Of a stretch of DNA of 64,000 bases, positions 10,134-53,306 are shown in pieces (the stretch's first letter is position 1; every line of letters starts with the position of its first letter). The stretch lies in the NCBI RefSeq assembly GCF_051903065.1, contig NZ_CP178438.1; one strand, written 5' to 3'. This stretch comes from Escherichia coli (GTDB lineage: Bacteria > Pseudomonadota > Gammaproteobacteria > Enterobacterales > Enterobacteriaceae). The notes under the pieces are model-generated. The model searched no databases. It was not told where the DNA came from and saw nothing but the letters and a program-made list of their open reading frames with translations. A program made the translations under genes and the position numbers.

Positions 10134-10420
10134 TTTCATTCCTGATTTTAATTAACGCGCGAATATTCAGCGGGAGAGTCCCGTTGAAAACAGGAAAGTT
10201 TTTAACCTGAGATTGTTAAAGATATATTACGGATTAATAATATTCTTAAAATGTGGTAATTTATTAAATCTGTAATAAAAGCGTAAACAACTGCCGCTAG
10301 GCTTGCTGATCCCGCGCAACAAAACGCCATGCTTTGCTCGCAGATGGTTGGCAACCGACGACAGTCCTGCTAAAACGTTCGTTTGATATCATTTTTCCTA
10401 AAATTGAATGGCAGAGAATC

Positions 10421-11524
10421 ATGAGTGACAGCCAGACGCTGGTGGTAAAACTCGGCACCAGTGTGCTAACAGGCGGATCGCGCCGCCTGAACCGTGCCCA
10501 TATCGTTGAACTTGTTCGCCAGTGCGCGCAGTTACATGCCGCCGGGCATCGGATTGTTATTGTGACGTCGGGCGCGATCGCCGCCGGACGTGAGCACCTG
10601 GGTTACCCGGAACTGCCAGCGACTATCGCCTCGAAACAACTGCTGGCGGCGGTAGGGCAGAGTCGACTGATTCAACTGTGGGAACAGCTGTTTTCGATTT
10701 ATGGCATTCACGTCGGGCAAATGCTGCTGACTCGTGCTGATATGGAAGACCGTGAACGCTTCCTGAACGCCCGCGACACCCTGCGTGCGTTGCTCGATAA
10801 CAATATCGTTCCGGTAATCAATGAGAACGATGCTGTCGCTACGGCAGAGATTAAGGTCGGCGATAACGATAACCTTTCTGCGCTGGCGGCGATTCTGGCG
10901 GGTGCCGATAAACTGTTGCTGCTGACCGATCAAAAAGGTTTGTATACCGCTGACCCGCGCAGCAATCCGCAGGCAGAACTGATTAAAGATGTTTACGGCA
11001 TTGATGACGAACTGCGCGCGATTGCCGGTGACAGCGTTTCAGGCCTCGGAACTGGCGGCATGAGTACCAAATTGCAGGCCGCTGACGTGGCTTGCCGTGC
11101 GGGTATCGACACCATTATTGCCGCGGGCAGCAAGCCGGGCGTTATTGGTGATGTGATGGAAGGCATTTCCGTCGGTACGCTGTTCCATGCCCAGGCGACT
11201 CCGCTTGAAAACCGTAAACGCTGGATTTTCGGTGCGCCGCCGGCGGGTGAAATCACGGTAGATGAAGGGGCAACCGCCGCGATTCTTGAACGTGGCAGCT
11301 CCCTGTTGCCGAAAGGAATTAAAAGCGTGACTGGCAATTTCTCGCGTGGTGAAGTCATCCGCATTTGTAACCTCGAAGGTCGCGATATCGCCCACGGCGT
11401 CAGTCGTTACAACAGCGATGCATTACGCCGTATTGCCGGACACCACTCGCAAGAAATTGATGCAATACTGGGATATGAATATGGCCCGGTTGCCGTTCAC
11501 CGTGATGACATGATTACCCGTTAA
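10421..11524 (+). CDS. proB: glutamate 5-kinase
   Basis: 367 aa from [16 protein letters not shown]; ORF-track start 10334 is an upstream extension. Confidence 0.92.
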
Positions 11525-11535
11525 GGAGCAGGCAA

Positions 11536-12789
11536 ATGCTTGAACAAATGGGCATTGCCGCGAAGCAAGCCTCGTATAAATTAGCGCAACTCTCCAGCCG
11601 CGAAAAAAATCGTGTGCTGGAAAAAATCGCCGATGAACTGGAAGCACAAAGCGAAATCATCCTCAACGCTAACGCCCAGGATGTTGCTGACGCGCGTGCC
11701 AATGGCCTTAGCGAAGCGATGCTTGACCGTCTGGCACTGACGCCCGCACGGCTGAAAGGCATTGCCGACGATGTACGTCAGGTGTGCAACCTCGCCGACC
11801 CGGTGGGGCAGGTAATCGATGGCGGCGTACTGGACAGCGGCCTGCGTCTTGAGCGTCGTCGCGTACCGCTGGGGGTTATTGGCGTGATTTATGAAGCGCG
11901 CCCGAACGTGACGGTTGATGTCGCTTCGCTGTGCCTGAAAACCGGTAATGCGGTGATCCTGCGTGGTGGCAAAGAAACCTGTCGCACTAACGCGGCAACG
12001 GTGGCGGTGATTCAGGACGCCCTGAAATCCTGTGGCTTACCGGCTGGTGCCGTGCAGGCGATTGATAATCCTGACCGTGCGTTGGTCAGTGAAATGCTGC
12101 GTATGGATAAATACATCGACATGCTGATCCCGCGCGGCGGGGCTGGTTTGCATAAACTGTGCCGCGAACAGTCGACGATCCCGGTGATCACAGGTGGTAT
12201 AGGCGTATGCCATATTTACGTTGATGAAAGTGCAGAGATCGCTGAAGCATTAAAAGTGATCGTCAACGCGAAAACTCAGCGTCCGAGCACATGTAATACG
12301 GTAGAAACGTTGCTGGTGAATAAAAACATCGCCGATAGCTTCCTGCCCGCATTAAGCAAACAAATGGCGGAAAGCGGCGTGACATTACACGCAGATGCAG
12401 CTGCGCTGACACAGTTGCAGGCAGGCCCCGCGAAGGTGGTGGCGGTTAAAGCCGAAGAGTATGACGATGAGTTTCTGTCATTAGATTTGAACGTCAGAAT
12501 CGTCAGCGATCTTGACGATGCCATCGCCCATATTCGTGAACACGGCACACAACACTCCGATGCGATCCTGACCCGCGATATGCGCAACGCCCAGCGTTTT
12601 GTTAACGAAGTGGATTCGTCCGCTGTTTACGTTAACGCCTCTACGCGTTTTACCGACGGCGGCCAGTTTGGACTGGGTGCGGAAGTGGCGGTAAGCACAC
12701 AAAAACTCCACGCGCGTGGCCCAATGGGGCTGGAAGCACTGACCACTTACAAGTGGATCGGCATTGGTGATTACACCATTCGTGCGTAA
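11536..12789 (+). CDS. proA: gamma-glutamyl phosphate reductase
   Basis: 417 aa, [37 protein letters not shown]. Confidence 0.95.
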
Positions 12790-12902: not shown

Positions 12903-12979
12903 GGCCGATATAGCTCAGTTGGTAGAGCAGCGCATTCGTAATGCGAAGGTCGTAGGTTCGACTCCTATTATCGGCACCA
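12903..12979 (+). tRNA. thrW: tRNA-Thr (CGU anticodon), prophage attachment site
   Basis: GCCGATATAGCTCAGTTGGTAGAGCAGCGCATTCGTAATGCGAAGG...TCGGCACCA cloverleaf ending in CCA, immediately followed by an integrase gene. Confidence 0.85.
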
Positions 12980-12993
12980 TTTAAATCAATAAG

Positions 12994-14157
12994 TTACACA
13001 TCATTAGTACCTTCCTTATTTTTTGACTGGGACAAATTTGGGACCGATGGGTTCAGGATCGAGTCTATTTGCCGTGCGTGTTCGGTAAGGTGATTAGGTG
13101 CAAGGTGAGCATATCGACGAACCATTTCGATAGACTCCCAGCCTCCCATTTCCTGTAACACTGACAACGGGACTCCGGCTTGAACTAGCCAACTTGCCCA
13201 GGTGTGTCTCAAGTCGTGAAATCTGAAATCATCAATACCAGCCCGTCTCAGCGCCGCTTTCCAGGCTGTGTTTGCGTCATACCGCATCTTCCTTACTGTT
13301 GGCGCTTTCGTTCCGTCTGGTTTGGTACAGCTTTCCTTGTACACAAATACCCAACGGTGATGATTCCCGATTTGTTTTTTCAAAACGCGACATGCAGTAT
13401 CATTCAGCGCAACGCCAATTGCGCGGTTTGATTTACTCTCTTCCGGGTTTATCCATGCCACCCGGCGCTGCATGTCTATTTGTTGCCATTCAAGGTTGAT
13501 GATGTTCGAGCGTCTTAAGCCTGTTGCCAGTGCAAATTCAACAACAGACTTTAATGGCTCCGGACATTCATCAATCAGCCTTTGTGCTTCATGGGGCTCC
13601 AGCCAGCGGATCCGTTTATTCTTTGGTTGAGGCACTTTAATAATTGGTGCCTTATCCAGCATTTTCCATTCACGCTCTGCGGCTCTTAGTAGGGCCTTTA
13701 TAAATGAAAGATGCGTAGCCTTCGTTGCAACGGACGCTGGTTTTGGCGTGTATTCTGGAACAGGTTTCCCTTTTTTTCTGCATGCTTCTGCCCTGAGTCT
13801 CCAGTTTTCCTCATGACGCCGGTTCGTCATTTTCTGCATTGCTGAATAAATTTTTGATTCAGTAATGTCTCTTAGTTGCATTCCTGCGAAATGTTGAAGC
13901 CAGAATCCGATCCGGCTTTTGTCATCGTCCAGTGATTTTTTATGTGCTTTCTCTTCAAGCCACCTGACACACGCTTCCTCGAACGTTATATCAGGTATTT
14001 CACCAAGTTTGCTGACCCGCCATGCTTCAGCCTTTAGCTTGTCATGGAGTTCTGTCGCCTGCCTTTTGTCCTTTGTTCCAAGAGACTGTTTAAATCTTTT
14101 ACCGTTCGGCAATGTGAAACTGGCGTACCATATTTCACCTCTGCGGAAGAGTGACAT
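12994..14157 (-). CDS. int: tyrosine integrase, P22 Int-like
   Basis: 387 aa, [31 protein letters not shown]..., catalytic [15 protein letters not shown]...VRRYAHL; adjacent to thrW. Confidence 0.95.
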
Positions 14158-14387
14158 TTTCTTTCCTCTGTTATGCCATCACCCGCGCTCACCTGGACAG
14201 TATGCAGCGGAGACTGAAGAGCCGCAATGCAGGCTTGTCGTGTTGTGAGGTAAGGAGATTTATTCTTAGTGGGATCTTTGCGTGTTGCCTGAAGACGCCC
14301 TGTGCGTATCCAGTTAATGGCAGTCGGTCTGGATATCTTGAGAAAATGACAGGCCTCATCGAGTGTGAGGCTGTATGGCTCCATTAT
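14034..14387 (-). CDS. xis: excisionase
   Basis: ~117 aa from [33 protein letters not shown] (HTH); overlaps the int 5' end as in P22. Confidence 0.8.
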
Positions 14388-14689
14388 TTCACCTCTTGCT
14401 GTGACATTGTTGAAAAATGGATACCAGCTCGTTGCTGCCAGACGATCCAACCGAGAGTCATATCCCATGCCATGTATTCGTTATCGCCGTTTTTTGCTCT
14501 CCGACGATCTACTAAGTCACCGAAACGCTTTTCCATGAATAATTCATAAGCTTCGCGTTCATCTGGTTCTACTTCCAGAGATAGGAGTGCGATTTCATAA
14601 GCACGGCGCTCAATATCGTCTCGCACGTCAAGGCTGCTGATACGCTCTTTAATTTCTTTAATCAGTTCTTTGTCGGTAAAAGTGGTCAT
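14384..14689 (-). CDS. hypothetical prophage early protein
   Basis: 101 aa ORF translationally coupled within the leftward early operon. Confidence 0.5.
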   Translation of the reverse strand: MTTFTDKELIKEIKERISSLDVRDDIERRAYEIALLSLEVEPDEREAYELFMEKRFGDLVDRRRAKNGDNEYMAWDMTLGWIVWQQRAGIHFSTMSQQEVK

Positions 14690-15051
14690 TATGCTCCAGC
14701 CTCCGGTGCTTTTGGCATTACTGCCCAGTGAGTGATATTGACGTTTTCAAGGTCCCCGACCTGAAATGTCCACTGCCATTCTCCGGTTTCTTTTTGTCCC
14801 CAGGTGTACCAGAGAGAACGCCAGCCAATTAGCCAGCCTTCTCCGTTAGCATCGAATAACAAAACACTTTCATTTGCTGGTGGCAGTTCAGTTGACACTG
14901 GTATTACTTTGTTTTCCTGTGCTGCACATTTAGCTTCAAGCGCATCGAATTTACGCACTAGGTATTCAGCATCTGTTTCATTTACTTTCAGATCTCGCGG
15001 TACACATCTCCCACGAAGAAACCCTTCCATTTCGAAAACATTCATGCGCAT
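14689..15051 (-). CDS. DUF551-like prophage protein
   Basis: 120 aa, W-rich C-terminus (GWLIGWRSLWYTWGQKETGEWQW) typical of lambdoid DUF551 proteins. Confidence 0.5.
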   Translation of the reverse strand: MRMNVFEMEGFLRGRCVPRDLKVNETDAEYLVRKFDALEAKCAAQENKVIPVSTELPPANESVLLFDANGEGWLIGWRSLWYTWGQKETGEWQWTFQVGDLENVNITHWAVMPKAPEAGA

Positions 15052-15578
15052 TTGCGTAACTCCGATAACTCGTTAAAGCGTTCCATAAACATCCCGTAGG
15101 CATGGCCCGGTGCCAGTGGAATCACGTTGAACATCTCTGTTGCCGGGATACCTTCCAGTACAGGCCAGAAAGAGCCATCATCAAGCCCGAGATCGCGGCG
15201 TTCGGTTGCCAGCATGATGAGATCGGCATATTTCACGGGCGTACTCATAACTGGGGGTAACCCGTATTTCTCACGGATTACGGCGTCTATTTTTTCTTCC
15301 ATTTGTTTATAGTCAGGAAGAAGGCGTTTCAGTGGTGCGGGAATGTCCTGGCAATACGCTTCTGTTGCATCATGCATTAACGCTTCAAAAGCAAATTCCT
15401 GCGGCACCAGCTGGCTGCAAAGAACCGCATGTTGGGCGACGCTGTAGAAGTGCGAAAGATGACCGGCAAAGCGACAGATATTTGAAAGGGAAACCGCGAT
15501 ATCGTTAATATCGATGTCGTCTTTATTTATCCTGTCATAATAAAAATGCTTCCCGGAAAAAGTTTTAATAAATGACAT
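15042..15578 (-). CDS. HD-domain phosphohydrolase (YfdR-like 5'-deoxynucleotidase)
   Basis: MSFIKTFSGKHFYYDRINKDD..., HD motif context AQHAVLCSQL...MHDATEAY. Confidence 0.7.
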   Translation of the reverse strand: MSFIKTFSGKHFYYDRINKDDIDINDIAVSLSNICRFAGHLSHFYSVAQHAVLCSQLVPQEFAFEALMHDATEAYCQDIPAPLKRLLPDYKQMEEKIDAVIREKYGLPPVMSTPVKYADLIMLATERRDLGLDDGSFWPVLEGIPATEMFNVIPLAPGHAYGMFMERFNELSELRKCA

Positions 15579-15705
15579 TTTGTTCTCCACGTATATGCGC
15601 TGCACCGCGCTGAATTCTGGTAAAAAGAATCCCTCACCATCCGGCGATTATTGAGTAAATTACGTTTCCATAAATGCCCCCGCAGGGGCATTTGCAGTAA
15701 TGAAA

Positions 15706-16530
15706 TCAGGCGGTGAAAGTACCAATAAAGGTTTCTACTTTGCTGTCCTTGAATTTCTCAACAAGCAGATCACGAAATTCGTTAGCCATTTCTTCCTGCA
15801 CCGCCTCCAGCTGAATAATGCGCAGAACCAGTACAGGACGATCGCCAGTGATAATACTGAGGCGTAATTTAAACGGACGTTCTTTCAGACCTTCAAACGG
15901 AACGCATTTAAATTCAAATGCCACTGGCATAATGTCTTTGGTCTTCGCTTCGACAGACTCCATCAGGGAGCGTTTGCCGCTGAAGTCATTATCTTCAAAA
16001 TCAGCGGTCTGGTTTGCTTCAATCGTGATTTTACGGACAGCCGCAGCCGCTTTTGTTGCCTGAATAGCGTCACCATTAGCATCAAAGCCCACAAGATAGT
16101 CGGCCCAGTCTTCAATCCATTCTGCTAGTGACTTCTGGGAGTTACGCTCGCCGTTAACAGACAACAGAGCAGAGAACGGTGCTGTCTTTTTCAGTTTGAG
16201 TGTGGCGGTGTTATCTGCGTGACCTGGTTCATCAATAGTACCCAGGTTAAGCACACTGACGGCACGCATATTATCAGCATCGATAAAGCAGCGGGTGCCT
16301 TCATCTGCAAGATCTTTAGAATAACGGGTAAAGTCATCGATGCTGGCAGTGGAAAGCGCACCACGGAAACGGAAGCGATTTAAATTAAATTTTTCCAGAT
16401 CATGAATGCGGAAATTCTCAGGCAATGCCACAGCATCGGCACCAATCTTACTGATAATTTCATTAACACCCTGAGCAGAAATAAGGGCATGGATTTGATT
16501 AATTGCGGTTGCGTCTAAGTTCTGAGACAT
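15706..16530 (-). CDS. DUF2303 family protein (YfdQ-like)
   Basis: 274 aa; resemblance to CPS-53 YfdQ and position next to the YfdR-like gene. Confidence 0.6.
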
Positions 16531-16595
16531 AATAAGTCCTCACTATATAAAGATATTCAGTGATGAGATAAATAATCAGTTAATTAAAAACGATA

Positions 16596-16958
16596 TTAAC
16601 GACCTGCTGCGCGGAGTTTTCCGTCAGGTTCACCGGCAAGAGTCAGTAACTGTCCCTGGTCTTCCTGCAGAATAGTCAGGCGACCACCGCGATTGACATA
16701 CATCGGCGTTTCGGTGGTGTCTTCTTCGGAAATTTTCCCGCGGTTAGTCGGGCGAACATATGAGAGTTTGTGTTTGATTTTCACTCGGTTCTCATCAAAC
16801 GGTTCGATTTCCAGGTTGAGCGAGACCTTACCTTTGGTTTTCGTGTTCATCACACCGGAAGCGACTTCACTGAGAACTGCGCCGATTTTGGTTTCAAATA
16901 CGCCGCCGTCCAGCTCCCCGATAAATGCCTGCACATCAGTACTGCGTTCGCTAGCCAT
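16596..16958 (-). CDS. hypothetical prophage protein (YfdP-like by position)
   Basis: 120 aa from MASERSTDVQAF... with AGGAG RBS 8 nt upstream; the longer track ORF is a 5' extension. Confidence 0.5.
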   Translation of the reverse strand: MASERSTDVQAFIGELDGGVFETKIGAVLSEVASGVMNTKTKGKVSLNLEIEPFDENRVKIKHKLSYVRPTNRGKISEEDTTETPMYVNRGGRLTILQEDQGQLLTLAGEPDGKLRAAGR

Positions 16959-17090
16959 TTTGCTGCTCCTCATCATATCGACCCTGCAAGGTCGGTTAGT
17001 TTCTCCACAAAACAGAGAAGAACACCTGCGGTGACTGCCGCCCGGATGGATTGGGTTATGAGCCCGTCGTCCGGTGATGCTCTTCTCTGT

Positions 17091-17139
17091 TTTGTAAAAA
17101 GGACGGTACCAGCCGGAAGCAAGAGTACAAGCTGGTACC
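17091..17139 (-). terminator. intrinsic terminator (tL-like) upstream of the leftward early genes
   Basis: 9-bp stem GGTACCAGC/GCTGGTACC followed on the minus strand by a T-run. Confidence 0.5.
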
Positions 17140-17426
17140 GCCAAGACTACACACAGCATAAAGTTGTGGTGCCGGGTGCCTCCCGGTGCCTGGCGAAGGT
17201 TGCACACCAGGCGGGTGGGTATCCACAGAAGGTCGACTGTCAGCCTCAACCTTAACCCGCGTGCGCTGAGCCGCATTCACCACAACGCTAAGGATTCTCT
17301 CTGGTTGAAAATACTTAGCTGTTATGTGCCTGCTTTTAGCCACATCAGGCGAGGTGGACCTAGTTATTCCCCAACAACAAGGATTCGGTTAATCTGGTTA
17401 TCCCCAACAACGCAAAAGGAAAAGAA

Positions 17427-17861
17427 ATGTCCGGTAATATCTATACGCTGTACAAATCCCACTGTGAAAATGTTGGAAAGTATCGGGGCATTGAAATCAG
17501 TGGGGTAGTGTCATCAGTCGAAATAAGCAAAGTTGAATCAAGGGCAACATTACTTACTCTTTTGGACCTTGTCTTACATGAGCACCGGAAGAAATTCGGC
17601 ACTCCCTATAATCAGTTGAATGGGAAAAAGGCTCTGGTTCACCTTATTCTGATGAAGCATCACTGGATGCCAAAACAGATTAATGAGATGAAATTTGATG
17701 AACTTCTTCTTTCAATTCAGGATGAACTCACACTTGATAAAATAAGCGTAACCGCCCAGAAATTTTTAGATTATCGAGACTGGAGATCACAAATTCATCA
17801 CTTTGATGATTTTGACGAAAATGAATGGGATCCTAATTTGTCTGCACAATATCTAAAGTAA
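17427..17861 (+). CDS. hypothetical AT-rich moron protein in immunity region
   Basis: 144 aa ORF on the opposite strand to flanking early genes; preceded by two GTTAT(T)CCCCAACAAC direct repeats. Confidence 0.55.
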   Translation: MSGNIYTLYKSHCENVGKYRGIEISGVVSSVEISKVESRATLLTLLDLVLHEHRKKFGTPYNQLNGKKALVHLILMKHHWMPKQINEMKFDELLLSIQDELTLDKISVTAQKFLDYRDWRSQIHHFDDFDENEWDPNLSAQYLK

Positions 17862-18039
17862 CATCCTGTGATAAAACCGTGATTTCCTGATCCAGTTTTT
17901 TTAAGGAGTCTATTGTTTCCTGTCGATAAGACAGCACTTCACGAAGCTGGTTTATAGCTGCCAGCTTCTTTGTCATCCACTCATAAATTTCCTCATCTGT
18001 GTAGCCAGGCGCGACGATTTTGGGTTCTGTTTTGTGCAT
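17833..18039 (-). CDS. small hypothetical protein, first gene of leftward (pL-like) transcript
   Basis: 68 aa from MHKTEPKIV with GAGGAG RBS 7 nt upstream; overlaps the 3' end of the convergent gene. Confidence 0.45.
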   Translation of the reverse strand: MHKTEPKIVAPGYTDEEIYEWMTKKLAAINQLREVLSYRQETIDSLKKLDQEITVLSQDVTLDIVQTN

Positions 18040-18098
18040 TTCACATCTCCTCAAGTTATCAGTTACTTGTTGATGGGGACCAGATTGTTAAAGAGCTA

Positions 18099-18196: not shown

Positions 18197-18234
18197 GCTT
18201 GGGTACATTATGTATCTCAAAGGTACATTGTCAA
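18197..18234. promoter_or_regulatory. OL-like operator/promoter region
   Basis: GGTACA half-sites (CTTGGGTACATT...AAGGTACATTGTCAAG) related to the OR palindromes. Confidence 0.45.
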
Positions 18235-18273: not shown

Positions 18274-18948
18274 TTAGGCTTTGATTTTGTATCTTCTTGG
18301 TTTTCCTGAGAAAATCACTGTACCAATTATAGAGCAATTACCGTTGATCTTAATGTAAGGCTCAGGCCAGTTTGGGTTTAACGCTTTGAGATAACGCTGT
18401 GTCCCATCTTCTATCAACCTTTTGAAGGTGGTTTCGCCTGTATCGTGCATCAATGCAATAACGTCGTCACCGTGGCAGGCAGGTACTTCAGGATCGACAA
18501 AAATCATGTCTCCCGGGCGGTACTCATCAATCATTGAATCACCTATCACCCGCAAGATATAAGTCATTTCCCCACAGGGTACAGGGCAGGGATACGTTTC
18601 TGCTGTGCTCAAATCAACCTCAGAATATCCAACTTCTTTCCATGCTCCGGCCTGTACCCATGATATGACAGGGACTAATGTGATTTGTTTATTAGTGATT
18701 GAAACATCAGGTTTTTTTGTGATGTTCGTTGTCTGGTGTTCTTGATCGAGCCATCCGACAGGCAGGTCGAAACATTTTTCGATGTGTCGTGCCATGCTGT
18801 CACCGATATTTTTAGTAGCACCATCTCCCATAAACCTGCTGGTCTGGGTTGGCTCGCGATCAATCATAGTGGCAAAGGAAGAATTCCCGCCAACACCATC
18901 TCTCAGTTTTCTGGCGTTAGACCGCCGGATGTCATGGATTGTTTTCAT
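18274..18948 (-). CDS. cI: CI-like repressor (HTH + S24 LexA-like peptidase domain)
   Basis: 224 aa, C-terminal S24 motifs (VIGDSM...YRPGDMIFVDPE...GDDVIALMHDTGETTFKRL); divergent from cro. Confidence 0.9.
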   Translation of the reverse strand: MKTIHDIRRSNARKLRDGVGGNSSFATMIDREPTQTSRFMGDGATKNIGDSMARHIEKCFDLPVGWLDQEHQTTNITKKPDVSITNKQITLVPVISWVQAGAWKEVGYSEVDLSTAETYPCPVPCGEMTYILRVIGDSMIDEYRPGDMIFVDPEVPACHGDDVIALMHDTGETTFKRLIEDGTQRYLKALNPNWPEPYIKINGNCSIIGTVIFSGKPRRYKIKA

Positions 18949-20178: not shown

Positions 20179-21120
20179 ATGAGCACTAAATTAACCGGCT
20201 ATGTATGGGATGGTTGCGCTGCGTCAGGCATGAAATTATCCAGCGTGGCAATTATGGCCCGCCTGGCTGATTTCAGTAATGACGAAGGTGTGTGCTGGCC
20301 ATCAATTGAAACCATTGCCCGTCAGATTGGCGCGGGGATGAGTACCGTCAGAACGGCTATCGCACGGCTGGAAGCAGAAGGCTGGTTAACGCGTAAGGCG
20401 CGTCGCCAGGGTAACCGCAATGCGTCGAATGTTTATCAGCTTAACGTTGCGAAGCTTCAGGCAGCGGCATTTTCTCAACTGTCAGATTCTGACCCGTCAA
20501 AATCTGACGCATCAAAATCTGACCCGTCAAAATTTGATGCGTCGAAATCTGGCAAAAAAGCGGGTTTTCACCCGTCAGAATCTGGCGGGGATCCGTCAGT
20601 AAAATCAAAACATGATCCGTCAGATAAAAAAACTTCTCGTCCGGACGCTTCGCAACCGGACACGCAGACGGCTGAACAGGAGTTTTTAACTCGCCATCCT
20701 GATGCGGTTGTATTCAGCCCTAAAAAGCGCCAGTGGGGAACGCAGGATGATTTGACCTGCGCACAGTGGCTCTGGAAAAAAATCATCGCCCTGTACGAGC
20801 TGGCCGCCGAATGTGACGGCGAGGTGGTTCGTCCCAAAGAACCGAACTGGACAGCCTGGGCAAACGAAATTCGCCTGATGTGTGTGCAGGATGGTCGTAC
20901 TCACAAACAAATCTGCGAGATGTACAGCCGCGTCAGCCGCGATCCGTTCTGGTGCCGTAACGTGCTCAGCCCGTCGAAGCTGCGGGAAAAATGGGATGAG
21001 CTTTCCCTGCGCTTATCGCCGTCCATCAGCACATACACAGAAAAACGCGAAGACCCGTATTTCAAATCCAGTTACGACAACGTGGACTACAGCCAGATCC
21101 CGGCAGGATTCAGGGGGTGA
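20179..21120 (+). CDS. replication initiation protein (O-like)
   Basis: 313 aa, N-terminal HTH region, low-complexity SKSD repeats, conserved C-terminal domain; iterons within the gene. Confidence 0.75.
   Translation: MSTKLTGYVWDGCAASGMKLSSVAIMARLADFSNDEGVCWPSIETIARQIGAGMSTVRTAIARLEAEGWLTRKARRQGNRNASNVYQLNVAKLQAAAFSQLSDSDPSKSDASKSDPSKFDASKSGKKAGFHPSESGGDPSVKSKHDPSDKKTSRPDASQPDTQTAEQEFLTRHPDAVVFSPKKRQWGTQDDLTCAQWLWKKIIALYELAAECDGEVVRPKEPNWTAWANEIRLMCVQDGRTHKQICEMYSRVSRDPFWCRNVLSPSKLREKWDELSLRLSPSISTYTEKREDPYFKSSYDNVDYSQIPAGFRG
20470..20600 (+). repeat. origin iterons within the replication gene
   Basis: Tandem CCGTCAAAATCTGA-like repeats (at least five) followed by an A-rich stretch. Confidence 0.65.
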
Positions 21121-23141: not shown

Positions 23142-24137
23142 GTGACCGTGAGAGCACTACTGACCCCTGAAATAGCCCCGCGTATGGGGATCGTATTGTT
23201 CAGACCCGGTTCAGAGCTGATGCCCCTGTTTATGCAGGGGCGTGTCCTGCTGGAGCCTGAGCCGGAACGTTATTCATCTTTCGCCAGTGGTGCCGTTCCC
23301 GCGGCATCACAACCGCTGGCGGATGATCCTGCCGTTCGGGCCGTGTTCTGCAATGAGGCAGTGATCCGTCGTACTGGTGGCGTGGAATGTCTTGAAAGCT
23401 GGTTACTTCGTGAAAAGGGCTGTCAGTGGCCTCATTCCGACTGGCACAGCGAGAACATGACCACAATGCGACACGCGCCGGGCGCGATCCGTCTGTGCTG
23501 GCACTGCGATAACCAGCTGCGCGATCAGTTCACGGAACGGTTGGAATCAATGGCAACGGATAACTGTGCCCGCTGGGTGTTGTCTGTTGTGCGTCGGGAT
23601 CTCGGTTTTGATGACAGTCACGTTGTGACAATGCCGGAACTGTGCTGGTGGCTGATTCGTAATGACCTGGCGGATGCCTTACCGGAAAGTGCAGCCCGTA
23701 AGGCACTGAGATTACCGAAGCCTGTTGTGCCGTCTGTCACCCGGGAAAGTGACCTTGTTCCTTCGGTTCCTGCCACCAGCATTATCCAGGATAAAGCGAA
23801 AAAGGTGCTGGCGCTGAAAGTGGATCCAGAGTCGCCGGAGTCTTTTATGTTACGCCCAAAACGTCGCCGCTGGGTTAATGAAAAGTACACGCGCTGGGTT
23901 AAGACACAGCCGTGTGCATGTTGTGGAAAGCCTGCTGATGATCCCCACCACCTGATAGGTCACGGTCAGGGTGGAATGGGTACAAAAGCGCATGACCTCT
24001 TTGTGTTGCCTTTGTGCAGAAAGCATCACGACGAGCTGCATGCGGATACCGTGGCATTTGAAGAGATGTATGGCTCCCAGTTGGAGCTGATATTTCGTTT
24101 TATTGATCGTGCGCTGGCAATTGGCGTGCTGGCCTGA
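23142..24137 (+). CDS. DUF968 family protein with C-terminal HNH-like zinc motif
   Basis: C-terminal CACCGKPADDPHHLIGHGQGG...CRKHHDELH. Confidence 0.65.
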   Translation: MTVRALLTPEIAPRMGIVLFRPGSELMPLFMQGRVLLEPEPERYSSFASGAVPAASQPLADDPAVRAVFCNEAVIRRTGGVECLESWLLREKGCQWPHSDWHSENMTTMRHAPGAIRLCWHCDNQLRDQFTERLESMATDNCARWVLSVVRRDLGFDDSHVVTMPELCWWLIRNDLADALPESAARKALRLPKPVVPSVTRESDLVPSVPATSIIQDKAKKVLALKVDPESPESFMLRPKRRRWVNEKYTRWVKTQPCACCGKPADDPHHLIGHGQGGMGTKAHDLFVLPLCRKHHDELHADTVAFEEMYGSQLELIFRFIDRALAIGVLA

Positions 24138-24151
24138 TTTGGTGGAGAAAG

Positions 24152-24502
24152 TTGATGCGTGATATGTATGAAGTATTGGACCGCTGGGGAGCATGGGCTG
24201 CAGCAGAAAATAGTGGTGTGGACTGGCAGCCGATAGCGGCTGGTTTCAAGGGACTTTTACCACACGGTAAAAAGTCACGTCTCCAGTGTGATGATGATGA
24301 AGGCATCATGATAGATAGTTGTGTGGCTAGGTTGCGTAAATATAAGCCGGAAGAGTATGAGCTGATAATTGCTCACTTTGTTATCGGTATCTCATTACGC
24401 ACTATTGCGAAGAAGAGAAAATGCTCTGATGGGACTATAAGAAAAAAGTTGCAAGCTGCATTGGGATTTATTGATGCAGTTATATATATAATACATGGGT
24501 AA
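24152..24502 (+). CDS. Q: antitermination protein Q
   Basis: 116 aa, position upstream of late promoter and lysis genes; Q-family C-terminus. Confidence 0.7.
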   Translation: MMRDMYEVLDRWGAWAAAENSGVDWQPIAAGFKGLLPHGKKSRLQCDDDEGIMIDSCVARLRKYKPEEYELIIAHFVIGISLRTIAKKRKCSDGTIRKKLQAALGFIDAVIYIIHG

Positions 24503-24510
24503 TTTATTAG

Positions 24511-24529
24511 ACGGCCATATTGGCCGTCA
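24511..24529. terminator. bidirectional hairpin between Q and cargo operon
   Basis: Perfect palindrome GACGGCCA-TAT-TGGCCGTC. Confidence 0.55.
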
Positions 24530-25714
24530 GCTAAATAAATATGTAATAGCATAAGGCGTAAGTAAAAAGTAGAACCTAAATGTAAGATATAAGCCACATA
24601 AAACTATAATTCCTAATGAGGCAAAAACAACTTTCTGAACAAGCAATCTTGTGGTTAAACTATCAAATGTATCCTTTATATCTTCGTAAATAGCCTTGAA
24701 GTTATATTCTGCTTGTTGTTTTTTATGATTTAACTCATCATTTATTGCTGTTAAAGTTTGCCATTGATTAAATAGAACAAATAGAATCATAATAGTGAAG
24801 AACAATGCACCCAACACTACAGCTGTATTTATTAATGCTTGACTATCCCAACCATTAGCCTGCTTCATTTGAGTCGCAACGATAATTGTTGCGACGGGGA
24901 TACCTAATATCTGATTTTGTATGTCACTGAATACTTTATGTATTTTTCCCATCTCTTCTATTTTGGCTACTCGTAACTGATCCAGTATTTTCTCGTAAGA
25001 AAAACCAGAAACGAATACTTTGTATCCTTTTTGATAACTTTCATAAAGTTGTCCTAAATCCCTTAACATGAAGGAAAAAGAGGTTTCTTTAGTTTTAGAT
25101 TCACATGATGATTTTATGCTACTTGCTAAAATAGTAAGTTTTTGATCTTTATGCGTATCTTCTGCAAAGTTTGCGATCAAATTATGAATCAGATCTCCAT
25201 TAACATTCATAAGATCATCGCTAGAATAATTTACTGGAATTTTTAGTACGTTGGATTCGACGAATACCAATTCAAAATTTGTTTCATCTAAATAAGCAGA
25301 ACAATCTTTGAATAAAGTAATTAAGCTCAAAACATCTCTGTACTTGGATATAATAGCAGGCGACTTTTTATCCCTGTTGTGATAATTAAGTTCGATTATA
25401 AAGAAGTTACTGGCTTCCTTTATCCTATTTTTAGGATTTTTTAAATACTCATTAAAAGAGAAATGTAGCTGCCCCAATCGTAATTTGGGGGGGGTTATAT
25501 GTAAGGTTATAGTTTGGCCTAACTCAATGTTGCCAGATTCAAGGGTGATGCCAAAATCATGGGGATTCTCTGTGATATCGTTGATGATGTCACAGAGCTC
25601 CTCGTTTGAAAGAATGAGTGATGCTTCAGATAGGGTACCTGCAAATGTAGCGGCCTTGTAAATAGTCACTAAGTCTTTGAAGGTTCTCTGATTGTTACTG
25701 CTCATCCTCTTCAC
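24527..25714 (-). CDS. membrane protein with two C-terminal TM helices (candidate effector)
   Basis: 395 aa; hydrophobic helices ALINTAVVLGALFFTIMILFVLF and VVFASLGIIVLCGLYLTFRFYFLL; AT-rich by eye; start overlaps upstream gene stop. Confidence 0.7.
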   Translation of the reverse strand: MKRMSSNNQRTFKDLVTIYKAATFAGTLSEASLILSNEELCDIINDITENPHDFGITLESGNIELGQTITLHITPPKLRLGQLHFSFNEYLKNPKNRIKEASNFFIIELNYHNRDKKSPAIISKYRDVLSLITLFKDCSAYLDETNFELVFVESNVLKIPVNYSSDDLMNVNGDLIHNLIANFAEDTHKDQKLTILASSIKSSCESKTKETSFSFMLRDLGQLYESYQKGYKVFVSGFSYEKILDQLRVAKIEEMGKIHKVFSDIQNQILGIPVATIIVATQMKQANGWDSQALINTAVVLGALFFTIMILFVLFNQWQTLTAINDELNHKKQQAEYNFKAIYEDIKDTFDSLTTRLLVQKVVFASLGIIVLCGLYLTFRFYFLLTPYAITYLFS

Positions 25715-26729
25715 CTAATTCTGATAAAATCTCTGATCTTAGCGTATCCGGAATCTCGGTAAGTATCAATTTATCGTTTTCTGAATCATAAAGAACGCTG
25801 CCATCATGCAAGGCCGCACGCTCGAATTTCAGAGACCAATGTTTGGACTTTCCTTTGAAACTAACAAGCCCACGTATAACGTTGCCATCAGGCACGAACC
25901 CATCAGAGAACTCCAGATCGTCATTGGTTAACTTTTCAACTAACAACTCAGGAGCAGTTGGCCATATCTCGTTTGCAAAAACTTGAGTGTCGAAAGCTTC
26001 ACCAGAACGATTTAAATTTTTTAATTTTTCATGAGCCTTATTTAGGAACTCTTCACGTGCCTCTGGTTCAAAACCTCTTTCAGTAGCAAATTCTAAAAGT
26101 GCATTCCGTAATTTTGTTGTTTCTTGTTTGGCAATTAGAATATCGTTACAACCTAAAAACTTTTTGAAATAACCTGCTACTGAATTTTGCCCCTTTAGAA
26201 AGCTAATATATCTCTCTTTGCCATTCTGGCGCCCAGTTAAGTCAATTCGTCCCGCTACTCGAAGTTTAGCAATGTCTAGATATTCACTTTCTTGAATTTC
26301 AAAATCGTGGACTGAAGAGCCAACTGCTGATGTTAGGATTGCAACCATCAAATAATGATTTCCATTTACCTCATTATGGGCAATTATTACATAACCACCA
26401 GTAGACATTGATTCATCATCGGCTCTGGCTTTTAAATGATTGATCATTCGGATACTAGTATCATAAAAACTATGTGTTTTATTTACGAAATAATCATCAA
26501 CGATATTACCCATAGGGTAACTATCGCGGTCATCTTCAAATTTACCATATCCTTTACCTGCTCTCCCAGAGTACCTTTCAGTAAGTGCGTTAGAGAGGTC
26601 TTTTGATGCTTGCTGAACAGGTTTTTCTGAAGGACAAGGAATAATGGTGGCTAACCCCTGTTGTTCCTTGTTCATAATGTGAACAATAAACTTATGAGTG
26701 ATATTAGTGGGGGTCGCTGATGCAGTCAT
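25695..26729 (-). CDS. NdpA/YejK-like (NA37 family) nucleoid-associated-type protein
   Basis: 344 aa; collinear motifs with E. coli YejK as recalled (YLMVAILTSAVGS, DIAKLRVAGRIDLT, RYISFLKGQ); AGGA RBS upstream of ATG. Confidence 0.65.
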   Translation of the reverse strand: MTASATPTNITHKFIVHIMNKEQQGLATIIPCPSEKPVQQASKDLSNALTERYSGRAGKGYGKFEDDRDSYPMGNIVDDYFVNKTHSFYDTSIRMINHLKARADDESMSTGGYVIIAHNEVNGNHYLMVAILTSAVGSSVHDFEIQESEYLDIAKLRVAGRIDLTGRQNGKERYISFLKGQNSVAGYFKKFLGCNDILIAKQETTKLRNALLEFATERGFEPEAREEFLNKAHEKLKNLNRSGEAFDTQVFANEIWPTAPELLVEKLTNDDLEFSDGFVPDGNVIRGLVSFKGKSKHWSLKFERAALHDGSVLYDSENDKLILTEIPDTLRSEILSELGEEDEQ

Positions 26730-26845
26730 AACAACATCCTTTTAATGGTTTTGAACAATTGGTGTTGATAATACTTCAAAAAATACTAATGCGTACGCAA
26801 AAAATACAGTACTCTGTTAAGAGTGGTTACTTCGCCACACAGCTT

Positions 26846-26875
26846 AAACCCGCCGTCGAGCGGGTTTTGTCGTTT
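26846..26875 (+). terminator. tR'-like terminator of the late leader transcript
   Basis: AAACCCGC-CGTCGA-GCGGGTTT hairpin followed by a T-rich tract, upstream of the holin gene. Confidence 0.55.
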
Positions 26876-27019
26876 CTGGGCTTTGGTATTCGTTGGGCTT
26901 GGTCTATCTAGCTCTTATCCATTGGCTCGGCTTCTTTTACGTTTCCGCTTCTGATTTGCGGTTCGTGGTACTCCCTCAATTTGCACCTCTTGTATCGGCG
27001 AGGTGAGAGATAACTACAA

Positions 27020-49985: not shown

Positions 49986-50855
<870 letters not shown>

Positions 50856-50945
50856 CTAATCCTTTGAATTTACATAGTAAAAAAGATACTTTTCCTCATA
50901 GTGTGAGCTAATTTTATGTTTCGTTTGATGATCGGACCGGTCTCA

Positions 50946-50987
50946 AAAACCGCAGGCACGTTGTATGCAAGAACGTGCTGTGGCTGG
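50946..50987. repeat. hairpin-containing direct repeat, copy 2
   Basis: AAACCGCAGGCACGTTGTATGCAAGAACGTGCTGTGG with 7-bp stem GCACGTT/AACGTGC. Confidence 0.6.
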
Positions 50988-51318
50988 CTGGTGAACTTCC
51001 AATAGTGCGAATATTGAATGATTTCTATCTGTTATAGATTTTACCGTATTTCGGCATGAATGAAACTGAATATCCTCCCACCGATTCTCCATGACTTTAC
51101 GCCACTGTCTCTAGGGCTGCTATGTGCCAGAGGCGGACGTTGTTAAAATAGAAAATATCCCAACCTTGTATGAGTCGTGCAATAATTTCGAACTTTATAC
51201 AAAGCTTTGGTTGTAAAGGTGTATAACCACAAGTGACATTAATCACATTTGTAAAGGCAAAATGCAACAAACTGAATTAGTTAATTGCGTAAATTTGAAG
51301 TTATGTTAAGGTGGTGAT

Positions 51319-51451
51319 GGTTTATGGGCAGATTTTGGGTCGCGTTTCGCGATCAGTGAAAAAAATGTCCGATAGGATTGCCTTTCAGGATCTCATGTTC
51401 CTCGCATTTCTTAAGGTTCTTGTCAAGTTTGCGTAAGAGTGCCCATAAACC
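51319..51451 (+). ncRNA. retron msr-msd non-coding RNA (a1/a2 bounded)
   Basis: 12-bp perfect inverted repeats GGTTTATGGGCA (51319-51330) and TGCCCATAAACC (51440-51451), the latter ~20 nt upstream of the RT start. Confidence 0.6.
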
Positions 51452-51470
51452 CTTTTAGAGGCGATCTAAA

Positions 51471-53306
51471 GTGAAACGACTACAATCATTAAAAGAAGCA
51501 AAAACAAAACCAGACTTGGCTAAGCTATTAGGAATCAAACCTTCAGCGTTAACATACTGCCTATATGTATTAAAACCTGAAAATCAATACACACAGTTTA
51601 AGATACCAAAAAAAAATGGCGGCGAACGGATAATAAGTGCACCTAACGGAATATTAAAGACGATACAGTCATCCTTATCAAGACTGCTTCTAGATTGCTT
51701 AGACGAAATAGTTTGCATTAAGTTTCCAGACTCAGAGTTAGCAAGGCAGAAAGCAAAAAACTCAAAAATATTAAAGTTAAAATGTTCCAACTCAGAAATC
51801 AAACAACCCTCACTGTCTCATGGATTTGAAAGAAAGCGTTCAATTATTACAAATGCAATGATGCACTTGGGGAAAAAATATGTTTTTAATATAGACTTGG
51901 ATAATTTTTTCGGCAGTTTTAACTTTGGTAGAGTCCGAGGTTTTTTCATAAAAAATAGAAACTTTGCACTCGATCCGGAAATCGCAACTGTAATTGCTAA
52001 AATTGCGTGCTACAACAATGAACTACCCCAAGGCAGCCCATGCTCCCCAGTAATCACTAATCTAATCACTCACTCGTTAGACATTAAACTGGCAGCGATT
52101 GCATCAAGAAACTCATCCACTTTTACAAGATATGCTGATGATATTACATTCTCTACGAGGAAGGGGGAGTTTCCTTCTGCTATAGCAAAAAATCAAAATG
52201 GTAAATATATCGTTAGTAAGAAAATTAGGGGCGAGATAACTCGCTCAGGTTTTATAATTAATGATGGGAAGACAAGAAATCAGTATAAAGACTCGAGGCA
52301 AGATGTAACAGGCTTAGTGGTTAATAAAAAGCCAAACACGAAAAAAGAATATTGGAGGCTTGTGCGTGCGCAATGTGACCATTTATTTAAACATGGTGAG
52401 TTCTTAGAGGTGATTGACGGCAAGGAAATAAAGGGGAATGTTAATAGCCTTGCAGGCAAACTTAACTTCATAGACCAAGTTGACCACTATAATAGATTGC
52501 GTCAAGGCGAAAAATTAAATCCAAAATATCACTTAAAAAAAGATGCCAATAAAAATGGCCATGCCAAAAAAAGGCGTTACTTACATAGTTCTAGAGAAAA
52601 AACGTTTAGTGAGTTTCTCTTCTATCGTTTATTTTATGGCAATGAATTACCAACAATTCTTACGGAAGGTAAAACTGACAATATTTATCTGAAGGCAGCA
52701 ATACATAAGTTAGCCTCATCATTCCCTAATTTGGCGGTCGCTGAAAGTCCAGGGCTCTCTTATAAGCCACGGACTAAATTTGTTAACTACAATGAGCGGA
52801 CAAAATATTTACTTGAACTTTATGGTGGTGCTGATTATTTAAAGGATTTTGTTATTCATTATAAACAACACTTTAATCGTTATAAGGCTCCCAAACCATC
52901 TAATCCAGTAATTATACTTGTTGATAATGATAGCGGACCAAAAGATCTGATTAATTACGTTAGTAAAGTTGATAATATTGGTATTTTCCCCACAGGTGTT
53001 CCAGATATCCGCGCCTCTGAGTTTGTACATATTTTTTGTAATCTTTATTTAGTGCTTACCCCTCAAGTTAAGGGATATACAGGAACTGATATAGAGCATT
53101 TTTTTAAAGATACAGATCGACTTAGACCACATAAAGGTAAGTTTTTCAATACAGTCTCTAAGCGTGATCATGATAATGATTTGAGCAAGGAATCTTTCGC
53201 AACTCATATTGTTCATGCCCACAAGCATGAAATTGATTTTAGTGGATTTACAAGCCTGTTAGAACGGTTAGTAAAAGTCATAAATCACTTTGACACTGTT
53301 AAGTAA
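51471..53306 (+). CDS. retron reverse transcriptase fused to a C-terminal Toprim domain
   Basis: RT motifs (NGGERIISAP, LPQGSPCSP, YADD in TRYADDITFS); C-terminal Toprim-like TEGKTD and VDNDSGP; 611 aa. Confidence 0.85.
   Translation: MKRLQSLKEAKTKPDLAKLLGIKPSALTYCLYVLKPENQYTQFKIPKKNGGERIISAPNGILKTIQSSLSRLLLDCLDEIVCIKFPDSELARQKAKNSKILKLKCSNSEIKQPSLSHGFERKRSIITNAMMHLGKKYVFNIDLDNFFGSFNFGRVRGFFIKNRNFALDPEIATVIAKIACYNNELPQGSPCSPVITNLITHSLDIKLAAIASRNSSTFTRYADDITFSTRKGEFPSAIAKNQNGKYIVSKKIRGEITRSGFIINDGKTRNQYKDSRQDVTGLVVNKKPNTKKEYWRLVRAQCDHLFKHGEFLEVIDGKEIKGNVNSLAGKLNFIDQVDHYNRLRQGEKLNPKYHLKKDANKNGHAKKRRYLHSSREKTFSEFLFYRLFYGNELPTILTEGKTDNIYLKAAIHKLASSFPNLAVAESPGLSYKPRTKFVNYNERTKYLLELYGGADYLKDFVIHYKQHFNRYKAPKPSNPVIILVDNDSGPKDLINYVSKVDNIGIFPTGVPDIRASEFVHIFCNLYLVLTPQVKGYTGTDIEHFFKDTDRLRPHKGKFFNTVSKRDHDNDLSKESFATHIVHAHKHEIDFSGFTSLLERLVKVINHFDTVK

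Follow-up and report, generated by a model that had tools for sequence, protein, structure and literature searches.

A yfdPQRST cassette in an SfIV/SfV-type Escherichia coli prophage and its possible role in arresting host replication initiation

The cassette and its relatives

In a 64,000-nucleotide stretch of Escherichia coli DNA (contig NZ_CP178438.1 of assembly GCF_051903065.1; hereafter the window, whose numbering is used throughout), five minus-strand genes, yfdP, yfdQ, yfdR, yfdS and yfdT, fill positions 14384-16958 (2575 bp, Table 1). It is near certain that they are the yfdP-yfdQ-yfdR-yfdS-yfdT cassette of an SfIV/SfV-type lambdoid prophage that lies at the tRNA-Thr gene beside proA. 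A preliminary description, made from the letters of the DNA, had delimited a leftward early module over exactly this range, from the stop codon of yfdT to the start of yfdP, and had listed a YfdR-like HD-domain protein, a YfdQ-like DUF2303 protein, a small YfdP-like protein and a DUF551 protein. All four are indeed encoded there, and the module lies on the minus strand between a repressor gene and xis-int. The profile searches which that description proposed confirm the families and uphold the relationship to YfdPQR; the fifth gene in the range, yfdT, had been missed.

The match of YfdQ to DUF2303 (PF10065) reaches 309.7 bits against a cut-off of 26.6, with residues 7-272 covering positions 2-269 of the 269-position profile. 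YfdS matches DUF551 (PF04448) marginally, with 22.2 bits against a cut-off of 22, over residues 50-117 (profile positions 3-68 of 68). YfdP found no match in the Pfam release scanned, a release without the PF27127 model, and its homologues are labelled PF27127 'YfdP' in precomputed Pfam hits. Over their first 45-50 residues, both YfdS and YfdT match the N-terminal ends of several PHROG families that differ elsewhere (phrog_614, 14548; phrog_5117, 60, 3323), which suggests that these N-termini are shuffled modules, as in early genes of the Ea22/ead type.

Against the CPS-53 (KpLE1) element of E. coli K-12 MG1655 (b2359-b2363), the cassette aligns as one colinear blastn segment of 2647 bp with 96.6% DNA identity, which starts 19 bp upstream of the yfdP ATG and ends about 50 bp beyond yfdT. 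The five genes, their order, their lengths (120/274/178/120/101 amino acids, aa) and their overlapping junctions are the same. The relationship to CPS-53 yfdPQR noted earlier therefore stands, but 'resembling' is too weak a word, as this is the same cassette. The two copies differ by 58 synonymous and 17 non-synonymous substitutions (dN/dS, the ratio of non-synonymous to synonymous substitution rates, 0.08), which rules out chance open reading frames (ORFs) or decaying pseudogenes; judged by these substitutions, the genes are functional and under purifying selection. The surroundings are different, however. Downstream of the block, K-12 has ypdJ-torI and, at argW, IntS, whereas the window has xis and int at tRNA-Thr, the two integrases being 17% identical; the yfdO/yfdP spacer with its SrsR sites in K-12 is absent from the window copy; and CPS-53 is a cryptic remnant, in contrast to the prophage in the window, which carries repressor, replication and morphogenesis genes. 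Since the int and xis found here are unrelated to IntS and TorI of CPS-53, the cassette is a mobile mosaic block common to phages with different integration modules.

Closer relatives are found in serotype-converting Shigella phages, with 99.8% DNA identity over the whole 2575 bp in SfIV (gp30-34) and 99.2% over the 2575 bp in SfV (orf28-32). Both phages share the xis-int neighbours and the repressor region, and differ in their Shigella host, the window copy being from E. coli. In the plaque-forming E. coli phage mEp460, the same P-Q-R-S block (gp32-35) opens the early-left operon, but yfdT is lacking and other genes precede xis. Salmonella ST64B (sb37-sb36-sb35) and LLS (gp39-38-37) have the trio of yfdP, yfdQ and the HD gene in the same order and directly after the repressor region (YfdQ 57% identical, YfdP E 2e-43, HD protein E 2e-81), but no homologues of YfdS or YfdT; downstream are DUF262, Ea22-like and exonuclease genes. 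In ST64B the trio opens the early-left operon, as the block does in mEp460. A 3.4-kb query around the block matches 3885 out of 5426 complete E. coli genomes (about 70%), as a whole or in large parts, and RefSeq gives the names yfdT, yfdS, yfdR, yfdQ and yfdP in a 100% identical genome. Its sequence has been known from SfV and K-12 for decades. It is thus already known: annotated, widely distributed and, in 2016, studied experimentally.

Table 1. Features of the cassette and its surroundings in the window; identities to K-12 proteins are from global alignments.
Feature	Position	Strand	Evidence and remarks
yfdP	16596-16958	-	120 aa; 98.3% identity to K-12 YfdP; PHROG 204 E 1.3e-50
yfdQ	15706-16530	-	274 aa; DUF2303 PF10065 E 2e-92; 99.3% identity to K-12 YfdQ
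GC-rich hairpin, 9 bp, just after yfdQ stop	15672-15693	-	no U-tract
yfdR	15042-15578	-	178 aa; HD-domain phosphohydrolase; PHROG 318 E 2.7e-110; 97.8% identity to K-12 YfdR
yfdS	14689-15051	-	120 aa; C-terminal DUF551; PHROG 583 E 1e-82; 95.8% identity to K-12 YfdS
yfdT	14384-14689	-	101 aa; PHROG 660 E 7e-31; 96.0% identity to K-12 YfdT
xis, excisionase, about 116 aa	14034-14384	-	PHROG 2907 E 3e-50 over whole 115-116 aa form; HTH_17
int, tyrosine integrase, 387 aa	12994-14157	-	PF00589 E 3.5e-48
tRNA-Thr(CGT), integration site beside proA	12904-12979	+	ARAGORN; RefSeq order proB-proA-tRNA-Thr-int
proB and proA	10334-12789	+	chromosomal genes 5' of tRNA-Thr
CI/LexA-like S24 repressor, bounds early-left region	18274-18948	-	Peptidase_S24 E 1.5e-26; RefSeq: LexA family protein
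Candidate leftward early promoter TTGACA-16-CATAAT, 11/12	18207-18234	-	consensus scan only; just downstream of repressor gene
ECs1072-family phage-associated gene, convergent	17427-17861	+	NCBIfam E 1.7e-46
73-aa ORF	17833-18054	-	PHROG 1744; overlaps end of ECs1072-family gene

The position of the cassette between the S24 repressor and xis-int, reading leftward, is that of a lambdoid early-left operon; the cassette makes up the promoter-distal part of this region and leads into xis and int. All genes from yfdP through int are on one strand, and several of them are tightly joined: yfdR and yfdS overlap by 10 nucleotides (nt), yfdS and yfdT share 1 nt in an ATGA, and yfdT and xis share 1 nt in a TAATG, the overlaps continuing as far as int, with longer gaps between yfdP and yfdQ (65 nt) and between yfdQ and yfdR (127 nt). 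From strand and junctions, it is plausible that yfdP to int are co-transcribed. The hairpin in the second of these gaps has a centroid energy of -15.8 kcal/mol but a z-score of only -1.2 in its 71-nt context, so that its significance is uncertain. The leftward order of minus-strand genes is S24 repressor, 73-aa ORF, yfdP-Q-R-S-T, xis and int, and a single plus-strand gene intervenes: the convergent ECs1072-family gene separates yfdP from the best promoter-like site. This gene between the repressor and yfdP resembles an inserted moron in the path of leftward transcription.

The start of yfdP is represented differently in other records. RefSeq has a frameshifted hypothetical CDS (coding sequence) at about 16973-17282 on the minus strand, directly upstream of yfdP, and the SfIV record fuses the upstream stretch into a 226-aa yfdP ORF (16596-17276). 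As homology to K-12 begins only 19 bp before the yfdP ATG, the 120-aa protein is the conserved form, and the 226-aa version is probably an over-call.

The conserved YfdP-YfdQ pair

By profile search, the YfdP family comprises at least 635 representative clusters (50% identity), almost all of which are proteins of 105-135 aa that stand alone. In each of the 17 independent lineages with a readable neighbour, a YfdP homologue is encoded directly upstream of a YfdQ homologue (matches by phmmer/hmmsearch, E 1e-15 to 1e-51). These lineages are a sample, not a census, and come from Escherichia, Salmonella, Vibrio, Pseudomonas, Xanthomonas, Acinetobacter and metagenomes. The loci beyond the window are those of Xanthomonas CP2, Salmonella ST64B, the Shiga toxin (Stx) phage PA2, Pseudomonas pAN, an Acinetobacter phage-like element, Vibrio VvAW1, 24E30.2, D93, 1.232.O and 1F273_PE002, and six metagenomic contigs; one additional contig of 1.2 kb was uninformative for the adjacency. 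This diversity was obtained by tblastn on a phage collection and by contig look-ups, as a viral-contig search with the YfdQ alignment had yielded 80 loci, each of them an E. coli copy with 100% identity. Two singleton E. coli proteins in the databases carry YfdP (PF27127) and DUF2303 (PF10065) in one chain, probably deletion or assembly artefacts joining the adjacent genes.

The other three genes do not follow the pair. A YfdR homologue is present in two of the 12 loci scanned for it (ST64B and pAN) and YfdS or YfdT in none, so that the five-gene block is a conserved P-Q core with variable, lineage-specific additions of yfdR, yfdS and yfdT. Genes for SSB, a DnaQ/DEDD exonuclease or RecT/Erf-exo lie near the pair in PA2, CP2, VvAW1, 24E30.2, pAN and the Acinetobacter element. 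The pair is seen both in temperate phages and in phages where neither an integrase nor a repressor is in view. According to a survey of lambdoid phages from 2025 (PMC12315714), early-left operons commonly contain the HD/YfdQ/YfdP cluster, whether or not a Rec module is also present, and YfdQ and YfdP are without known function. I found no function assigned to YfdP or YfdQ in the literature searched either. The earlier remark that the roles of these proteins are poorly defined is thus correct for this pair, but less so for YfdR, for which binding to domain I of DnaA has been published (PMC4776307).

The AlphaFold2 model of YfdP (predicted local distance difference test score, pLDDT, 91) consists of one long helix packed on a three-stranded sheet and gave no informative fold match in the structure libraries searched. 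The model of YfdQ (pLDDT 77) gave no Foldseek match below E 0.1 in a PDB fold library that lacks the entry 9o7m. This entry, 'YfdQ Protein', was identified by sequence; it has 36 chains, and the chain so named shares about 40% identity with the YfdQ of the window. A chain of 9o7m is 98.8% identical to a protein of the CP2-like Xanthomonas phage MET23-P3. As 36 chains are present in one entry, this YfdQ homologue forms a large assembly. Neither the YfdP homologue of CP2 nor the neighbouring 511-aa CP2 protein has a sequence match in the PDB, hence neither is visibly part of 9o7m. No paper on 9o7m or on the structure of YfdQ was found in the literature searched; a 2026 preprint on the CP2-like phage PhiXacm4-11 was considered as its source and rejected, as other codes were deposited and YfdQ is not discussed there.

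In an alignment of 12 diverse YfdQ sequences, E46, T61, Q132, E140-D141 (within the motif [FW][IL]EDW), R166 and E242 are invariant, and H104 nearly so. No known catalytic signature was recognised among these residues. The possibility that YfdQ is a PD-(D/E)xK nuclease was dismissed after inspection of the alignment, in which the invariant residues include no matching acid-x-Lys motif. Nor is this a plasmid leading-region gene: the 23 records obtained from the plasmid collection were for the most part chromosomes under a wrong label or elements resembling phages, so that the genes are essentially absent from true plasmids. From the neighbouring genes and the 36-chain assembly, I infer that YfdP and YfdQ may provide an oligomeric protein that acts on DNA replication or recombination intermediates.

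Inhibition of host initiation and its alternatives

The experimental evidence on the cassette comes from K-12, where Noguchi and Katayama (2016, PMC4776307) isolated the cluster as a multicopy suppressor of the over-initiation of an hda-185 mutant. Suppression required yfdQ, yfdR and either yfdS or yfdT, and did not require yfdP. Multicopy yfdQRS or yfdQRT inhibits initiation at oriC, and additional copies had this inhibitory effect in wild-type cells as well as in dnaAcos, seqA, DARS and diaA backgrounds. In purified form, YfdR binds domain I of DnaA in a manner dependent on Phe46 and moderately inhibits the binding of DiaA and of DnaB to DnaA, and in vitro replication from oriC was inhibited by extracts with an oversupply of YfdQRST (PMC4776307). 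The YfdR encoded in the window differs from the K-12 protein by four substitutions, and at 97.8% identity to the protein assayed it can be expected to bind DnaA as well.

Put together for an intact prophage, the genes would be silent in the lysogen under the CI-like repressor, and induction or infection would lead to expression of the cassette together with xis and int. YfdR would then bind the Phe46 surface of DnaA domain I in competition with DiaA and DnaB, and with YfdQ and either YfdS or YfdT would block initiation at the host oriC, a shut-off from which the phage replicon plausibly benefits. The HD active-site residues are intact in YfdR, but the phosphatase activity on deoxynucleoside monophosphates (dNMPs) that is reported for it is of low affinity and would probably not be its main role. 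I consider the chances about even that host-replication shut-off through YfdR and DnaA domain I, aided by YfdQ and YfdS or YfdT, is what the cassette does, on the basis of K-12 overexpression experiments with near-identical proteins. A hint of a pro-lytic effect comes from a CPS-53-positive K-12 strain, in which production of YfdQ is reported to have raised plaque production by phage SW1 (preprint 10.1101/413146). Such a role would have functional parallels. Lambda P targets domain III of DnaA, and Bacillus subtilis SirA targets domain I at Phe49, the equivalent of E. coli Phe46 (PMC4776307); in both, as proposed for YfdR, host initiation is blocked by an accessory protein that binds the initiator. 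The likeness is claimed by function alone; YfdR is an HD-domain protein, and its effect needed YfdQ plus YfdS or YfdT.

Several observations weigh against this explanation. All of the functional evidence is multicopy overexpression in K-12; initiation was unaffected when yfdQRST was deleted, and the authors concede that the effect of overexpression could be an artefact. In their pull-downs YfdQ, YfdS and YfdT did not tightly bind YfdR or DnaA (PMC4776307). Furthermore, yfdP is dispensable for the phenotype though no other gene is linked to yfdQ as tightly, and transcription from the candidate promoter at 18207-18234 would have to cross the convergent plus-strand gene before it reaches the cassette. 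As the P-Q pair is present in many phages without YfdR, DnaA inhibition is probably not the primary function of the pair. It could instead be an obligate two-protein module with a new activity on replication or recombination intermediates, to which the enteric lambdoid phages have coupled YfdR for DnaA-dependent shut-down of initiation; this is possible, but I would regard it as rather doubtful.

Alternatively, YfdR may mainly be a 5'-deoxynucleotidase which reshapes the pools of dNMPs and deoxynucleoside triphosphates (dNTPs) in early lytic growth, the other genes being passengers, a proposal that I judge unlikely. The HD metal ligands (H50, H69-D70 and D119) are all present and align to the HD core of Agrobacterium Atu1052 (PDB 2gz4), there is a weak but specific similarity to YfbR-like 5'-deoxynucleotidases, both RefSeq ('5'-deoxynucleotidase') and PHROG 318 ('deoxyribonucleoside 5' monophosphate phosphatase') name the protein accordingly, and a paper on cytidine monophosphate (CMP) production lists yfdR among reported CMP phosphatases. 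In that same work, however, deletion of yfdR gave no rise in CMP yield, and YfdR is described as having affinities for nucleotides far below those of YfbR, its function remaining elusive (Zimmerman 2008, as cited in PMC4776307). The score against the YfbR-like HD family PF12917 is 25.2 bits, just under the cut-off of 25.9 and over residues 41-104 only, and against the YfbR equivalog NF003009 (PRK03826) it is 20.5 bits where the cut-off is 122. E. coli YfbR (PDB 2paq) and Atu1052 belong to the same HD-domain fold family and keep the H...HD...D ligands, but the similarity of YfdR to 2paq is marginal (E 0.88), and among solved proteins it is nearest to Atu1052 (E 3e-14), whose function is unknown; nor is DnaA binding known for YfbR. 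As judged by these profile scores, YfdR is a distant HD relative and not a YfbR equivalog. The low affinity, the distance from YfbR and the need of the initiation phenotype for yfdQ and yfdS or yfdT (PMC4776307) make a nucleotide-pool role the weaker idea, and host-replication shut-off is better supported, given the binding of YfdR to domain I of DnaA and the block of oriC initiation by yfdQRS or yfdQRT in multicopy. The preliminary description had likewise thought of host takeover; takeover is plausible, but by way of DnaA rather than the dNTP pool that it named (PMC4776307).

Recombination functions of the Red/RecET/Erf kind normally occupy the early-left operon position, and the early-left region of this prophage has no recognisable Rec module. 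YfdP and YfdQ could accordingly be an oligomeric DNA-binding module for recombination or single-stranded DNA, resembling single-strand annealing (SSA) or end-protection systems and replacing or aiding Red/RecET/Erf. The SSB, DnaQ-like exonuclease and RecT/Erf-exo genes beside homologues of the pair would fit such a role, as would the 36 chains of the solved YfdQ homologue and the weak sensitivity of a yfdQ deletion to methyl methanesulfonate and H2O2 (reported in PMC4776307). The pair coexists with complete Rec modules, however, and no SSA-protein-like fold was matched in the libraries searched, which leaves this explanation less probable still. The least supported of the readings, and in my opinion quite improbable, is a benefit to the lysogen or an anti-defence role, be it stress tolerance, phage exclusion or the countering of host immunity. 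Deletions of CPS-53, yfdQ and yfdS raise H2O2 sensitivity (Wang 2010, as reported in citing papers), yfdPQ mRNA is detectable in growing K-12, and the cassette or large parts of it are widespread in complete E. coli genomes. Yet an intact prophage has these genes in an early region under the control of the repressor, and homologues occur in phages without a visible integrase or repressor in the regions examined (CP2 and Vibrio podophages), cases which a benefit to lysogens only cannot explain. For the exclusion of other phages, also proposed in the preliminary description, no supporting evidence was found: no PADLOC defence model matched the five cassette proteins and two neighbours at E <= 0.01.

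The surrounding prophage and the wider question

The int and xis genes are of the P22/SfV type, and the remaining prophage is about 97% identical to phages of the SfI/SfII/SfIV type and to related E. coli phages with sheathed tails. A direct-repeat search of the window did not reveal attL or attR. RefSeq and the SfIV record give xis as a 144-aa protein (14034-14468, minus strand), in an 85-nt overlap with yfdT. More likely is the 116-aa form, whose ATG at 14384 abuts the yfdT stop codon (TAATG), as the excisionase PHROG profile covers only this form. Phages SfI to SfV typically carry gtr-type genes for O-antigen modification. Two islands of low guanine-plus-cytosine (GC) content, at 24001-27000 and 50001-53000 (GC 0.36-0.43; about 0.5 or higher in the rest), are located within the prophage or at its far end, and the distal one might be such a set of gtr-type genes.

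Inside the O-like replication gene (20179-21120, plus strand), five to six tandem 15-bp repeats at 20467-20589, with the sequence TCAAAATCTGAC(G/C)C(R), probably mark the phage origin as iterons. Their reverse complement, GTCAGATTTTGA, includes the 11-bp 'SrsR box' TCAGATTTTGC/a, which has been reported four times in the yfdO/yfdP spacer of K-12 (PMC9181523). The strongest SrsR (YgfI) site of K-12 may therefore be leftover origin iterons of the truncated O gene of CPS-53.

The significance of this particular locus is small. Should the proposed shut-off of host replication hold for a live phage, it would clearly exemplify how a temperate phage can stop host initiation through domain I of DnaA. 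The general question is the role of the YfdP-YfdQ pair, as these are common early proteins of lambdoid phages and of several other phage groups, and the strict adjacency of their genes, together with a solved YfdQ assembly, makes the question of their function tractable.

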